A stretch of DNA of 64,000 bases from a plasmid, in the sequence record NZ_CP081675.1; one strand, given 5' to 3'. The position numbers were made by a program, and so were the translations under genes. Shown piece after piece: positions 17,559 to 36,060 of this stretch. Each line of letters opens with the position of its first letter. The stretch's first letter is position 1. The notes below the pieces were generated by a model. That model ran no database searches. It was not told the DNA's origin and saw nothing but the letters and a program-made list of their open reading frames with translations.

Positions 17559-19040
17559 ATGGCGGTCAATCGCGCTTCGGCGCCGCAGTCGAGCGGCTAC
17601 CTGTTTTTCTTGCGCAGACTAGGTGCTGCACAGCTCACAGGTGATGCCTCTCTTGAGGAAGATCCACACCGCGAACAGATGCTGGCGGTGGCAACATCGC
17701 TCGCAATCGGCGTGGTCTTGGTGATCATCATGGTGATCGCTTCGATCATCAAACCTGTTGGTTCTGTGGGTAACTCGCTGATTCTTCGGGACCTCGACAC
17801 CGGGGCCCAGTTTGTGCGGGTTGGCGAGACCCTGTATCCGGTACTGAACTTGACGAGTGCACGACTGATCGCCGGTAAGGCCGATAACCCTGAGCCAGTG
17901 AAATCCTCGGCGATGTCGAAATACCCGACCGGGCCCTTGGTGGGAATTCCTGGCGCACCGAACTGGCCGATCACCTCACCGCGCCAGGACCGCTCACGAT
18001 GGGCTGTCTGTGACAGCCTGCACGACAACCCCCTGGCACCACCGACAGTGACGGCCCTGGCCGGCCAGTTATCTCCAGAAGATCGTTCACACGTGCTCCC
18101 TGACGGCCAGGCTGTGCTCATGCGCTATGGGGGAAGCACATTCGCGGTGTGGGGATCGGTGCGCTCACCGATCGACACCACCGATAGGGCCACGGCGTTG
18201 GCGGTCGGAGTGGATGTGTCCACGGCCAAGCCCCGCGCTATGTCACGGGTCCTGCTCAACGCGATTCCAGCCACGCCGCCGTTACGGATTCCTGTGATCC
18301 CCAACGCTGGGGCGCCCAGCCCGTGGAATATCGCTCCCGGCGTGGTGGTCGGCTCGGTGCTGCAAGTCGAAGATCCCTCAGGCGGAACCGAATTCTTTGC
18401 GCTCACTGAGCAGGGGGCTCAGAAAGTGCCACCATTGGTGGCGTCGTTGATCCGTGGGTCGAACGCGTTCGGTGCTGCCACGGCGATCAAGGTGTCCACC
18501 GACCGGCTCGCGGGAGTGCCCGCCGCACATGTCCTCGACGTCGACTATTACCCGCAGAACCGCTTGAGCTTTGTCGATCCGGCGACCAACGGCGTCACGT
18601 GCCTGACGTGGGAGAAGGCTTCGGGAGAGAAGCGTTCCACCACCAGCATTTTGGTAGGTCGCACGCTGCCGTTGACTGATGAGCAGCAGAAGTTGATCGT
18701 GTCGTTGACACGCGATGACCGCCGAGGAACCACAGCCGATCAAGTGTGGATAGCCCAGGACGCGGCCGCCCTGTTTCGGGTCACCGGCATGGACCCAGCG
18801 GCAACGACCAAAGAGAGTATCTGGTGGCTGGCCCCCAACGGGGTGCGGTTCGGGATTCCGTTCGACAAGCCCACCTGGGATGCTCTCGGCCTCGATATCA
18901 GCGCCGCAGACCAAGCACCCTGGCCGATGGTGCAGCCCTACGCCGAAGGCCCGCTGCTGACTCGGGCCAATGCCGAAATCAAACAAGACACCCTTGCCCC
19001 AGGTAAGGCCCCATTGCCCCTGATGACTGCCGGCCAATAG
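17559..19040 (+). CDS. eccB: ESX conserved component EccB
   Basis: 493 aa; N-terminal TM helix then LYPVLNLTSARLIAGK... region characteristic of EccB; position upstream of eccC. Confidence 0.85.
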   Translation: MAVNRASAPQSSGYLFFLRRLGAAQLTGDASLEEDPHREQMLAVATSLAIGVVLVIIMVIASIIKPVGSVGNSLILRDLDTGAQFVRVGETLYPVLNLTSARLIAGKADNPEPVKSSAMSKYPTGPLVGIPGAPNWPITSPRQDRSRWAVCDSLHDNPLAPPTVTALAGQLSPEDRSHVLPDGQAVLMRYGGSTFAVWGSVRSPIDTTDRATALAVGVDVSTAKPRAMSRVLLNAIPATPPLRIPVIPNAGAPSPWNIAPGVVVGSVLQVEDPSGGTEFFALTEQGAQKVPPLVASLIRGSNAFGAATAIKVSTDRLAGVPAAHVLDVDYYPQNRLSFVDPATNGVTCLTWEKASGEKRSTTSILVGRTLPLTDEQQKLIVSLTRDDRRGTTADQVWIAQDAAALFRVTGMDPAATTKESIWWLAPNGVRFGIPFDKPTWDALGLDISAADQAPWPMVQPYAEGPLLTRANAEIKQDTLAPGKAPLPLMTAGQ

Positions 19041-19070
19041 CCAGACGCTGTGCCTGGATCATGCCGTTGA

Positions 19071-34477: not shown

Positions 34478-36060
34478 GTTCACTGGTCGGATTTGACATT
34501 CGGGCCCTGCTGCCCAGCGAGGTTGTCGCGGCGGTAGCCGGGTTGACCCTCGTGTGGTCAGGCGTGGCGTGGCAAGCTGCGGTGGCGGTGGCCGCGGTAC
34601 TGGTTTTGTCGGGCACCGTGGCTGTCAAGCGGCATTCGCCGGCGAGATGGTTGGCGTTGGGCGGGCGATGGCCGTGGTCGCGCCGGAACGTGATGGGCGC
34701 GGCGCTGCCAGTGCCGGTGGACACTGGCTTCGATGGGGCGGTGGTCGGGGTGCGTCTGCACGCCGGAACGTTGACGTCGATGATCGCGGTCGCCGGAAGC
34801 TCGTACGCCCCAACGTTCTTGGAACGCACCCGCACGGCATCGACGACCAACACGGTCCCGATGAGCGTGCTGGTTCCGTTGGTCGATCAGTTCGGGTTGG
34901 CGGTCAGTATCGAGGTTGTCTCCGCAGGCCAACGTCGCGCGATGATGGGCATCTATGCTGCCTTGTACGAAAAGATCATTGGCACTCGCCCTGTCGCTGC
35001 GCAGCGACGCACGTGGCTGATCCTGCGCGTGGACGTCATCAAGAGCATCCAGGGGCTCACCACCCGCAAGAGCCTTTTTGCGGCCATGGCTGCGGCGACC
35101 GAGCGGTGCGCACGGCAACTCGATGAAGCAGGATGCCGGGCACGTCCCTGCACCGCCGATGACATCATTGAAGCCGAGAAGCTCCTTCTCGGCCCTGGCA
35201 GCACACAAGTTGAGGATCGCTGGTCTCACATTCAGTCAGCGGCAGGAAGTGTCGCTACCTATGTGGTGCGGGCGAAGGATCTTCGAGAGCGTCCGATTGA
35301 TCGTCTGTGGATCATGCGAGCGAACGCCGTAGCCCACAGCGTGCACCTCAAGCCCACCGAAACTGGGCCCCAAATGGCGGTGTCTGTACGGATAGAGACC
35401 GTGCAGCACAAGGACTTTGATGTGCCCGCAGTGTTCAGTCGGATACCGGGCGAGCAGGCCAGGGCATTGCGGGCGGCGCGGGCGAGCGCTGAGCATGTCC
35501 CGCACCTGGAGTATGTGCCCGCGGCTGATCTGAACTTGCATGCAGGCCCATCGGGAGTGTTGCTTGGGCGCACAGTCGAGGACAAGACACCGTTTCTGCT
35601 CCCGCTGACAGACCCGTTGCGATCCACGTCCGTGTCGGTTGCCGCCAACCCGACCCTGGTCCGGCAAATGGTGCTACGCGCGGAGGGAACCGGGGAGCGA
35701 ATCGCGGTTTATACGGCAAAACCCATGGCATGGGCCAATGTTGGGCGTTCGTCGCGAATCTGGATCGCACCTTCAGCGCACACCAAACCGCCGGGGCCGG
35801 TAACCATGATCGTCGCCGACGGCGTGGAGGCACCTGCGGTTGCGGCGTCCACCGTGATTACCGTAGAACCTGTGCCAGCGGAACCAGAAGCTCAAGCGCG
35901 ACGCACGGCCGCTGGGACAGCCGATCAGCGTGTTGACGTGTCGATCACCGAACATGACAACAACCAGTTGTGCGTGGGGACTCAGTCTGAGAGCTGGATG
36001 ATCGAACCGGTCTATTACGCTGACGAAGCGAACTTCCTGAACGAGCCGAGCTACGTATGA
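34474..36060 (+). CDS. eccE: ESX conserved component EccE
   Basis: 528 aa; two N-terminal TM helices; position after mycP. Confidence 0.65.
   Translation: MSSLVGFDIRALLPSEVVAAVAGLTLVWSGVAWQAAVAVAAVLVLSGTVAVKRHSPARWLALGGRWPWSRRNVMGAALPVPVDTGFDGAVVGVRLHAGTLTSMIAVAGSSYAPTFLERTRTASTTNTVPMSVLVPLVDQFGLAVSIEVVSAGQRRAMMGIYAALYEKIIGTRPVAAQRRTWLILRVDVIKSIQGLTTRKSLFAAMAAATERCARQLDEAGCRARPCTADDIIEAEKLLLGPGSTQVEDRWSHIQSAAGSVATYVVRAKDLRERPIDRLWIMRANAVAHSVHLKPTETGPQMAVSVRIETVQHKDFDVPAVFSRIPGEQARALRAARASAEHVPHLEYVPAADLNLHAGPSGVLLGRTVEDKTPFLLPLTDPLRSTSVSVAANPTLVRQMVLRAEGTGERIAVYTAKPMAWANVGRSSRIWIAPSAHTKPPGPVTMIVADGVEAPAVAASTVITVEPVPAEPEAQARRTAAGTADQRVDVSITEHDNNQLCVGTQSESWMIEPVYYADEANFLNEPSYV

Follow-up and report, generated by a model that had tools for sequence, protein, structure and literature searches.

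What kind of type VII secretion (ESX) system is encoded on the plasmid record NZ_CP081675.1, and where does it stand between the systems of mycobacterial plasmids and those of mycobacterial chromosomes? The question concerns a stretch of 64,000 nucleotides of this record (hereafter the window), in which the original prediction placed a plasmid-type ESX (ESX-P) locus with a full core gene set at positions 17559-36060. Chromosomal ESX-1, -2, -3 and -5, including the virulence systems of Mycobacterium tuberculosis, presumably derive from plasmid ESX systems. To our knowledge, the function of ESX-2 is unknown so far. The reading adopted here, with a probability of roughly 80%, is that an ESX-P locus, the type VII secretion system of mycobacterial conjugative plasmids, occupies the region from about 12.6 to 36.1 kb, accompanied by a type IV-like block at 38.7-52.0 kb and a detached eccA gene at about 52.2-54.0 kb, and that the host is a fast-growing Mycolicibacterium. 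The ESX cluster appears complete, its function is apparently maintained by selection, and a conjugation module adjoins it on what is very probably a mycobacterial plasmid. This kind of system is already known, and the window matches the ESX-P class in every testable feature. The copy described here represents a rare branch that had not been classified before and is related to chromosomal ESX-2. What sets it apart is its sequence lineage, its hydrolase catalytic domains and the pairing of an ESX-2/pRAW-type gene order with a detached eccA.

The core of the locus is well defined. Open reading frames (ORFs) on the plus strand of 17559-36060 were scanned against Pfam and against the curated equivalog cut-offs of NCBIfam, and the assignments are collected with the other features in Table 1. 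EccB, a fused EccC, EccD, the mycosin and EccE all scored above the NCBIfam cut-offs, and all the core and accessory genes named in the original prediction were found on the plus strand at their predicted places and in their predicted order. The predicted coupling overlaps are also present, as the PE-like and PPE genes share TAATG and the eccD/mycP and mycP/eccE pairs share ATGA; an 8-nt overlap joins the espI-like gene to eccD. EccC is regarded as fused because one single protein matches both EccCa and EccCb. Its ORF opens at 19071, the probable start by homology with the relative D16R24 (described below) is at 19095, and the product has 1374-1382 amino acids (aa). It contains three FtsK-type ATPase domains with the Walker A sequences GATGSGKS (domain 1), GEPRSGRT (domain 2) and GASESGRS (domain 3). 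The arginine that replaces the Walker A lysine in domains 2 and 3 was considered as a peculiarity of this protein and rejected, since the reference plasmid EccCs carry R, A or L there. The espI-like gene occupies the position of the MinD/ParA genes in pMK12478 and in the plasmid of Mycobacterium sp. Aquia_216. For mycP, the mechanical ORF (32444-34477) overlaps eccD, and translation really starts from an ATG at 32834; the resulting protein of 547 aa has a signal peptide, a D/H/S triad, a proline-rich insert of about 100 aa and a C-terminal transmembrane anchor. The insert (33200-33560) is rich in proline and alanine and follows the catalytic histidine region; the MycP5 structure aligns over this region in one stretch and the MycP1 and MycP3 structures in two. 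Among matches to solved structures, ESX-5 components score highest (EccB5 319 bits, EccC5 521, MycP5 386), and no ESX-2 structure is among these matches.

The left boundary of the locus has to be moved, since the start at 17559 proposed in the original prediction is that of eccB and the real start is near 12.6 kb, with WhiB, HTH, hydrolase, DUF4226, EspC-like and DUF2694-like genes in between. Upstream of eccB, the chromosomal ESX-2 locus of M. shigaense (CP022927) carries WhiB on the minus strand, followed by HTH, NlpC/P60, DUF4226, a second DUF4226, EspC and DUF2694. Because the interval 12602-17533 of the window presents the same series, the functional locus begins about 5 kb before 17559. 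The EspC-like/DUF2694-like pair is likewise found in M. shigaense ESX-2, and orthologues of the DUF4226 protein precede eccB in D16R24, Aquia_216, M. abscessus plasmid 2 and ESX-2.

The region beyond eccE identifies the conjugative context. A VirD4/TraG-like coupling protein, a TcpC-like protein, a VirB4-like ATPase and a conserved protein of about 650 aa are followed by eccA, whose ORF opens at 51872 and whose likely start is the ATG at 52166 with GGGAGG upstream. The VirD4/TraG-like protein is 37% identical to a 'TraM recognition domain' protein at the same position in Aquia_216, and a gene for an LppP lipoprotein is listed between it and TcpC. The order from eccE through VirD4, TcpC, VirB4 and the ~650-aa gene to eccA is that of the complete circular plasmid of Aquia_216, and the type IV-like block is also colinear with that of M. 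abscessus plasmid 2. A block of ESX and type IV synteny, in which eccA migrates with the type IV genes, was described by Dumas et al. 2016 (PMC4779608), and the order in the window agrees with it. On pRAW, an ESX locus with two NlpC/P60 genes is combined with a VirB4/VirD4/TcpC module, in which TcpC is a structural homologue of VirB8, and transposon insertions in either eccC or virB4 abolish conjugative transfer (Ummels et al. 2014, PMC4173767).

The window also carries plasmid-type genes. It has ParA, the Phd/ParE and Xre/RES toxin-antitoxin pairs, and backbone genes that are 79-84% identical to genes of mycobacterial plasmids; most of the related plasmids fetched were typed MOBF. Family and tRNA scans of the 64 kb revealed no housekeeping gene, tRNA or integrase; Rfam and tRNA scans of the window gave no matches, nor did an NCBIfam scan of the backbone and hydrolase genes. 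The plasmid-type reading of the original prediction is supported by the VirD4/TcpC/VirB4 block with the detached eccA after the locus, by ParA, by the two toxin-antitoxin pairs and by the backbone genes. Its description of a replicon with Rep, ParAB and toxin-antitoxin genes holds for ParA and the two toxin-antitoxin pairs, but no family model matched Rep or ParB.

The substrate genes are less canonical than the core. Of the predicted PE-PPE pair, the PPE is clear, but the first gene gave no Pfam or NCBIfam PE match even at E=1 and is PE-like by its position, its coupling to PPE and a weak alignment only, with 18-28% identity to annotated plasmid PE proteins. The esxB-like and esxA-like genes are present as two adjacent 98-aa WXG100-like genes at the expected place, one above and one below the Pfam cut-off. 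Ratios of nonsynonymous to synonymous substitution (dN/dS) were calculated by the NG86 method between the window and its D16R24 orthologues for 11 genes with dS of 0.5-1.3, comprising DUF4226, EspC-like, a 93-aa ORF, EccB, EccC, hydrolase 2, PE-like, PPE, both Esx and EspG. The values range from 0.055 to 0.285. These values show strong purifying selection, even on genes with degenerate motifs, and indicate function. The motif changes in the PE-like and Esx proteins are common to D16R24, and these genes still show dN/dS of 0.06-0.29.

Relatives of the locus are few. The exact EccB is recorded only in a 4.6-kb Logan contig (SRR15372744), which is 100% identical to window positions 15106-19682 and starts inside a 655-bp repeat. 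The sole close copy among species-representative genomes is an 8-kb contig of Mycolicibacterium vanbaalenii BC8_1, with EccB 99% and DNA 95% identical. Among 5.8 billion proteins, close EccBs were found as four cluster representatives (90%, 87%, 71% and 70% identity), all others being at or below 44%. The 87% match belongs to Mycobacterium sp. D16R24, a Mycobacterium chelonae-like (Mycobacteroides) isolate from a German waterworks, on a 97-kb contig whose locus is colinear with the window; the paper describing this isolate makes no mention of plasmids or ESX. The 70% match is on a 154-kb metagenomic contig, L004 (ENA ERZ25074796). At L004 11565-17164, a TnpB element of 403 aa interrupts eccC, the genes directly after eccC are of TcpC type, and the stretch fetched downstream of eccC has no segment from PE to eccE; this contig looks like a decayed or rearranged form of the same lineage. 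The clade has five members, namely Mycolicibacterium BC8_1, Mycobacteroides D16R24 and three metagenomic or read-assembly sequences. The plasmid EccBs in PLSDB are at most 42% identical to that of the window. A megablast of the 18.5-kb locus against PLSDB matched only the IS3 element, so that no near-identical plasmid is on record there.

The position of this clade was examined in two trees. A neighbour-joining tree of EccB (488 columns, Kimura distances, 200 bootstraps) comprised 15 plasmid EccBs, EccB1, EccB3 and EccB5 as named in the PDB, and database matches including chromosomal EccB2. The window clade is monophyletic in it (100%). It belongs to a supergroup (98.5%) together with chromosomal ESX-2, M. 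abscessus 50594 plasmid 2 and the pMYCSM01/Aquia_216/JOB5 plasmids, and within this supergroup it forms its own early branch beside the EccB2 clade. Outside the supergroup are pMYCCH02 (ESX-P2'), pMUM002, EccB1, EccB3, and pMK12478 together with EccB5. EccB thus nests inside none of the chromosomal ESX clades and the flanks are plasmid-like, which supports the original prediction. In the EccC tree (nine taxa, 1299 columns, 300 bootstraps), the window clade is on a long separate branch on the ESX-2/P2/P2' side, with at most 33% identity to every reference. On these alignments the clade is a rare, distinct lineage on the ESX-2/ESX-P2 side of the ESX radiation, EccB and EccC differing on its sister group.

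Several ESX-P clusters and singletons have been defined by Dumas et al. (PMC4779608) and Newton-Foot et al. (PMC4791881), within a plasmid ESX radiation that is star-like and holds further lineages (Mortimer et al. 2017, PMC5381665). The pRAW type (pRAW, pMK12478, pMAH135, pMyong1), named ESX-P1 in Ummels 2014, ESX-P cluster 1 in Dumas 2016 and ESX-P5 in Newton-Foot 2016, shares with the window the order eccB, eccC, PE, PPE, esx, esx, espG, MinD/ParA, eccD, mycP, eccE (checked on pMK12478), attached peptidoglycan hydrolase genes, a VirB4/VirD4/TcpC module on the replicon and a presumed role in conjugation. However, its EccB is just 36-38% and its EccC about 30% identical, and the window is outside the ESX-5/pRAW clade; the locus does not belong to this type. 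The pRAW type has eccA directly after eccE, NlpC/P60 hydrolases and slow-growing hosts, whereas the window has eccA behind the type IV block, muramidase and LAS-type hydrolases and a lineage hosted by fast growers. Fast growers are among the hosts of the Aquia_216/pMYCSM01/M. abscessus 50594 plasmid 2 type, in which M. abscessus plasmid 2 represents the ESX-P2 of Newton-Foot. This type has the same downstream layout (eccE, VirD4, TcpC, VirB4, ~650-aa gene, AAA ATPase/EccA), DUF4226 and small T7SS-target genes, and the best EccB identity in PLSDB (42%). In contrast to the window, where eccB precedes eccC, this type has eccB moved between espG and MinD/ParA, and its EccC is only 27-33% identical.

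Chromosomal ESX-2, as found in M. shigaense, resembles the window in having WhiB, HTH, a peptidoglycan hydrolase, DUF4226, EspC-like and DUF2694 genes upstream, followed by eccB, eccC, PE and PPE. The ESX-2 map of M. tuberculosis (Rv3884c-Rv3895c) presumably has the same core order as the window, including the part from esx to eccE. The two nevertheless differ, since EccB of ESX-2 is just 40-42% identical, the window clade is outside the ESX-2 clade, and the context of the window is plasmid-like with a type IV-like module. Moreover, the place of the LAS-type peptidase is taken by NlpC/P60 in ESX-2, which is without a second hydrolase between eccC and PE.

Table 1. Features of the window, in order of position (first letter of the window = 1)
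Feature	Position	Strand	Evidence and remarks
DDE transposase	112-1518		
Phd/YefM-ParE toxin-antitoxin pair	3432-3976	-	
401-aa HTH protein	4139-5344	+	M. dioxanotrophicus plasmid genes share 84% identity
ParA-like gene	6367-7329	-	coupled to a 288-aa gene without assignment
658-aa protein	9772-11748	-	only a weak DUF7432 match
WhiB-like regulator	12602-13147	-	Pfam Whib E=6.9e-6; same place relative to eccB in M. shigaense ESX-2
HTH_31/HTH_3 regulator	13283-13978	+	Pfam; equivalents in L004 and M. shigaense ESX-2
Peptidoglycan hydrolase 1	14009-15094	-	WXG-like/DUF4226-related N-module; C-terminal domain with H..D..HxH, LAS-type peptidase-like
DUF4226 protein, 539 aa	15314-16933	+	PF10774 29.6 bits
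EspC-like small T7SS-target protein	16950-17255	+	T7SS_ESX_EspC 23.5 bits, equal to cut-off; dN/dS 0.13
DUF2694-like small protein	17252-17533	+	Pfam DUF2694 E=0.0011; coupled to EspC-like gene
eccB	17559-19040	+	PF05108 445 bits; TIGR03919 434.6 bits (cut-off 154)
eccC, EccCa and EccCb fused	19095-23219	+	TIGR03924 602 bits (cut-off 509); TIGR03925 473 bits (cut-off 347)
Peptidoglycan hydrolase 2	23246-24349	-	same N-module as hydrolase 1; C-terminal muramidase
IS3-family element, 1364 bp	24391-25754	-	orfA 25377-25703, orfB 24421-25374; rve/HTH_21 domains
PE-like gene	25873-26172	+	coupled to PPE via TAATG; dN/dS 0.055
PPE	26172-27368	+	PF00823 75.7 bits
EsxB-like WXG100 protein	27456-27752	+	PF06013 21.1 bits, under cut-off 27.3
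EsxA-like WXG100 protein	27801-28097	+	PF06013 29.9 bits, over cut-off 27.3; dN/dS 0.057
espG	28297-29304	+	PF14011 67.5 bits; 85% identical to D16R24 EspG; start codon uncertain
MinD/ParA-family ATPase (EspI/Rv3888c-like)	29378-31285	+	CbiA/AAA_31 domains, residues 383-595
eccD	31278-32837	+	YukD and EccD Pfam domains; TIGR03920 149.6 bits (cut-off 95)
mycP (mycosin)	32834-34477	+	TIGR03921 335.9 bits (cut-off 279); MycP5 structure match 386 bits
eccE	34474-36060	+	TIGR03923 201.6 bits (cut-off 108)
IS605-family element	36091-37810		tnpB 36091-37358 (-), frameshifted; tnpA Y1 transposase 37382-37810 (+)
VirD4/TraG-like coupling protein	38742-40130	+	T4SS-DNA_transf, TraG-D_C weak matches
TcpC-like conjugation protein	45854-46810	+	PF12642 28.4 bits; homologues in Aquia_216, M. 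abscessus plasmid 2 and L004
VirB4-like ATPase	47534-50098	+	AAA_10 56 bits; 30-34% identical to plasmid VirB4-like 'ATP-binding proteins'
Conserved ~650-aa protein (645 aa)	50095-52032	+	homologues come after VirB4 in Aquia_216 and pMK12478
eccA, detached	52166-53995	+	T7SS_EccA1_N 172.7 bits and AAA domain
Xre/MbcA-type antitoxin and RES-domain toxin (weak match)	55615-56849	+	

The peptidoglycan hydrolases are the second distinctive part of the locus. Both genes had been predicted within 17559-36060; the muramidase gene (hydrolase 2) is there, but the other is upstream of 17559. Residues 240-349 of hydrolase 1 match PDB 9flh (E=3e-10), and the protein is 63% identical to an L004 orthologue carrying PF26571. 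Residues 229-358 of hydrolase 2 match PDB 8b2e 'Muramidase' (E=9e-27), and this protein is 81% identical to its D16R24 orthologue, with dN/dS of 0.12. Two plus-strand ORFs (23186-23716 and 23723-24445) were rejected as genes, being antisense to hydrolase 2 and without family matches. The intervals 14481-15135 and 23736-24390 are 100% identical over 655 bp, which cover the N-terminal ~218 codons and 41 bp upstream, and the C-terminal domains of the two hydrolases are unrelated. The identity stops exactly at the left end of IS3, a pattern that points to gene conversion or shuffling of domains in recent times, with the insertion as its boundary. The short-read contigs of both SRR15372744 and D16R24 are interrupted at the repeat. 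As the D16R24 contig begins exactly at the repeat boundary, the duplication is suggested to be present in D16R24 too.

The common N-terminal module of the hydrolases is rare. When 1.84 billion representatives were scanned exhaustively by HMMER for the 164-aa module, 13 proteins were returned, and a word-indexed protein search returned one partial match. Its relatives match Pfam DUF4226 and include fusions to NlpC/P60 (three proteins), SLT (one) and phage-tail lysozyme (one); the module is also homologous to the N-terminus of a C40 peptidase of Aquia_216 (E=1e-6). Of the 13 aligned proteins, 10 carry G-W-x-G-x-x-A in a turn that joins two predicted helices. In the window clade this place reads Y/F/L-x-G, and the motif AP-x-T-x-x-AG is invariant. 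No obvious Sec signal was seen by eye in three N-termini, those of both window hydrolases and of the D16R24 orthologue. In the NlpC/P60 proteins of ESX-P1, too, a variable C-terminal enzyme domain comes after a helical N-terminal module that has W/L-x-G in a turn. The window proteins differ in having muramidase and LAS-type peptidase domains, and their secretion through ESX is a prediction. The polymorphic T7SS effectors of Firmicutes with LXG/WXG domains are a more distant parallel. The N-module had no sequence match to Pfam LXG, its matches being DUF4226 and weak EspA/EspE. Taken together, it may serve as a WXG/LXG-like module for targeting, with interchangeable lytic domains passing through the ESX machinery, alone or combined with type IV.

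Two insertion elements had been described as embedded in the locus. The IS3 element is indeed inside it, but the IS605 element begins 31 nt past 36060. A self-comparison showed the IS3 copy to be 100% identical to a second copy at 57001-58364, and it is equally identical to copies on M. aubagnense plasmids. Both IS3 copies of the window end in the inverted repeat TGATCCGCCCCGGC and are flanked by 3-bp target duplications, ACG for the first and GAC for the second. With two identical copies in the window and an empty site in the orthologous locus of D16R24, the insertion is recent; it took place in a divergent intergenic region of about 156 bp between the minus-strand hydrolase-2 gene and the PE operon. 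The second copy has the same orientation 32.6 kb downstream, and recombination between the two would remove the whole stretch from PE through Xre/RES, and with it the type IV-like block and most of the ESX locus. In the IS605 element (Cas12f1-like_TNB 70 bits, HTH_OrfB_IS605, Y1_Tnp 156 bits), a frameshift divides tnpB into two minus-strand parts, 36603-37358 and 36091-36669, which between them retain every RuvC and zinc-finger motif, and tnpA is intact. A GC-rich hairpin, CCGCTCCC-TGAA-GGGAGCGG (36061-36100), is found directly after the eccE stop at the edge of this element. The TnpB of L004 was considered as the same element and rejected, as the two have no similarity and are different elements. 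A plus-strand ORF at 36753-37964 was rejected as a gene, being antisense to tnpB and without a family match.

Further genes of the backbone have wide plasmid distributions. The 401-aa HTH protein is divergent from the ParA operon (5508-7329, minus strand) and is kept at 44-84% identity on 23 actinobacterial plasmids, always annotated just as a transcriptional regulator. It matches no Rep family and is, by position, a candidate replication initiator. Homologues of the 658-aa protein are found on 133 actinobacterial plasmids (Arthrobacter, Rhodococcus, Nocardia, Mycobacterium), 44 of which are typed conjugative, and it is an uncharacterised, widely conserved plasmid backbone gene. An adjoining 89-aa ORF (9501-9770) has a weak NikA-like match. 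An 844-aa protein (58975-61509, plus strand) has a weak match to DUF5632 and partial homologues on small (18-kb) M. abscessus plasmids; DUF5632/DUF5631 proteins are located just upstream of eccB2 in M. shigaense ESX-2.

A number of observations weigh against the view that this is a working ESX-P system which exports its hydrolases. No large ORF of the 64-kb window, which is only part of the replicon, gave a relaxase family match, and Rep was not recognised by any family model within it. The PE-like protein has Ile instead of the Tyr of YxxxD/E (IxxxD). The EsxB-like protein keeps WKG but has WQNED (WxxxD) in place of YxxxD/E; the EsxA-like protein is without a canonical WxG. EccC pairs the clade weakly (60%) with pMYCCH02 (P2') and not with ESX-2/P2. 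The recent IS3 insertion upstream of the PE operon may have an effect on its expression. As for the hydrolases, the EspA/EspE Pfam match of the N-module is weak and comes from one protein (E=0.016), and AlphaFold2 gave low-confidence, all-helical models (hydrolase 2, pLDDT 50; N-module from 13 sequences, pLDDT 59 and pTM 0.30). Their export through ESX is inferred from a motif rather than shown by the present data.

Some of these points would also suit other explanations of the locus. It could be a divergent member of a named plasmid group, either ESX-P2' (pMYCCH.01/.02 type) or ESX-P2, and no separate lineage. The weak EccC grouping speaks for this, as does the placement of eccB directly before eccC in pMYCCH02 and in an M. 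madagascariense plasmid, and many further plasmid ESX lineages (Mortimer et al. 2017, PMC5381665) are outside the comparison set. Such membership is nevertheless unlikely, given that pMYCCH02 is no closer than other groups (EccB 35%, EccC 33%), that it is outside the 98.5% EccB supergroup which holds the window clade, and that among 5.8 billion proteins no EccB above 44% exists outside the five-member clade. It is quite improbable that the region is not a plasmid but an island or integrative and conjugative element (ICE) of a chromosome, with an ESX-2-like locus and conjugation genes. The unrecognised Rep and relaxase in the window and the extended gene order of chromosomal ESX-2 would fit an island, and T7SS are reported on both ICEs and plasmids of environmental Mycobacteriaceae (PMC7478629). 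However, the 64 kb contain no integrase, tRNA or housekeeping genes; ParA, the two toxin-antitoxin pairs and the backbone genes match plasmids best (79-84%); the relatives are on contigs of 97 and 154 kb and the layout is colinear with a complete circular plasmid; and EccB is outside the chromosomal ESX-2 clade.

The most doubtful proposal, and a highly improbable one, is that of a decaying, non-functional remnant under colonisation by insertion elements. It would account for IS3 upstream of the PE operon and IS605 beside eccE, for the degenerate secretion motifs of the PE-like and Esx proteins, and for the 70% relative L004 with its eccC split by TnpB and PE-eccE missing from the stretch fetched. 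Against decay, all ESX ORFs are full-length with their couplings intact, dN/dS is 0.06-0.29, including the PE-like (0.055) and EsxA-like (0.057) genes, and both elements are intergenic, the IS3 insertion being recent. An intact plasmid ESX-P locus in a lineage of its own accordingly remains the preferred reading.

If this locus works as an ESX-P system, its mechanism can be outlined from the solved ESX-3 and ESX-5 complexes. EccB, EccC, EccD and EccE would form the inner-membrane translocon, stabilised by MycP, and ATPase domain 1 of EccC, with its canonical Walker A, most likely powers transport. The canonical substrates would be the two Esx proteins and, with EspG as their chaperone, the PE-like and PPE proteins. 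By analogy with pRAW, the ESX system and the VirD4/TcpC/VirB4 module probably act jointly to conjugate the plasmid, a role deduced from the requirement of pRAW for eccC and virB4. The two divergently transcribed hydrolases probably open the cell wall locally, in the role of VirB1, and their shared WXG-like N-module suggests that they are exported by ESX itself. A wider proposal, tentative when all its parts are taken jointly, is that the clade is an unclassified ESX-P type with the whole ESX-2 order on a plasmid moving between Mycolicibacterium and Mycobacteroides, and that the hydrolases are ESX substrates and polymorphic effectors.

Apart from its bearing on ESX-2 evolution and its hydrolase module, the locus is an ordinary member of a class already known. 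The lineage provides a new comparison point for how ESX-2 reached the chromosome, as it presents a full ESX-2-type order on a plasmid-like element of fast growers. If the wider proposal is true, the clade might be, among plasmid lineages living today, the one most closely related to the ancestor of ESX-2. The hydrolases, with a WXG/LXG-like targeting module and exchangeable lytic domains, would then breach the donor or recipient wall during conjugation dependent on T7SS and T4SS. Should these modular hydrolases be ESX substrates, they would form a concrete link from type VII secretion to cell-wall remodelling in mycobacterial conjugation.

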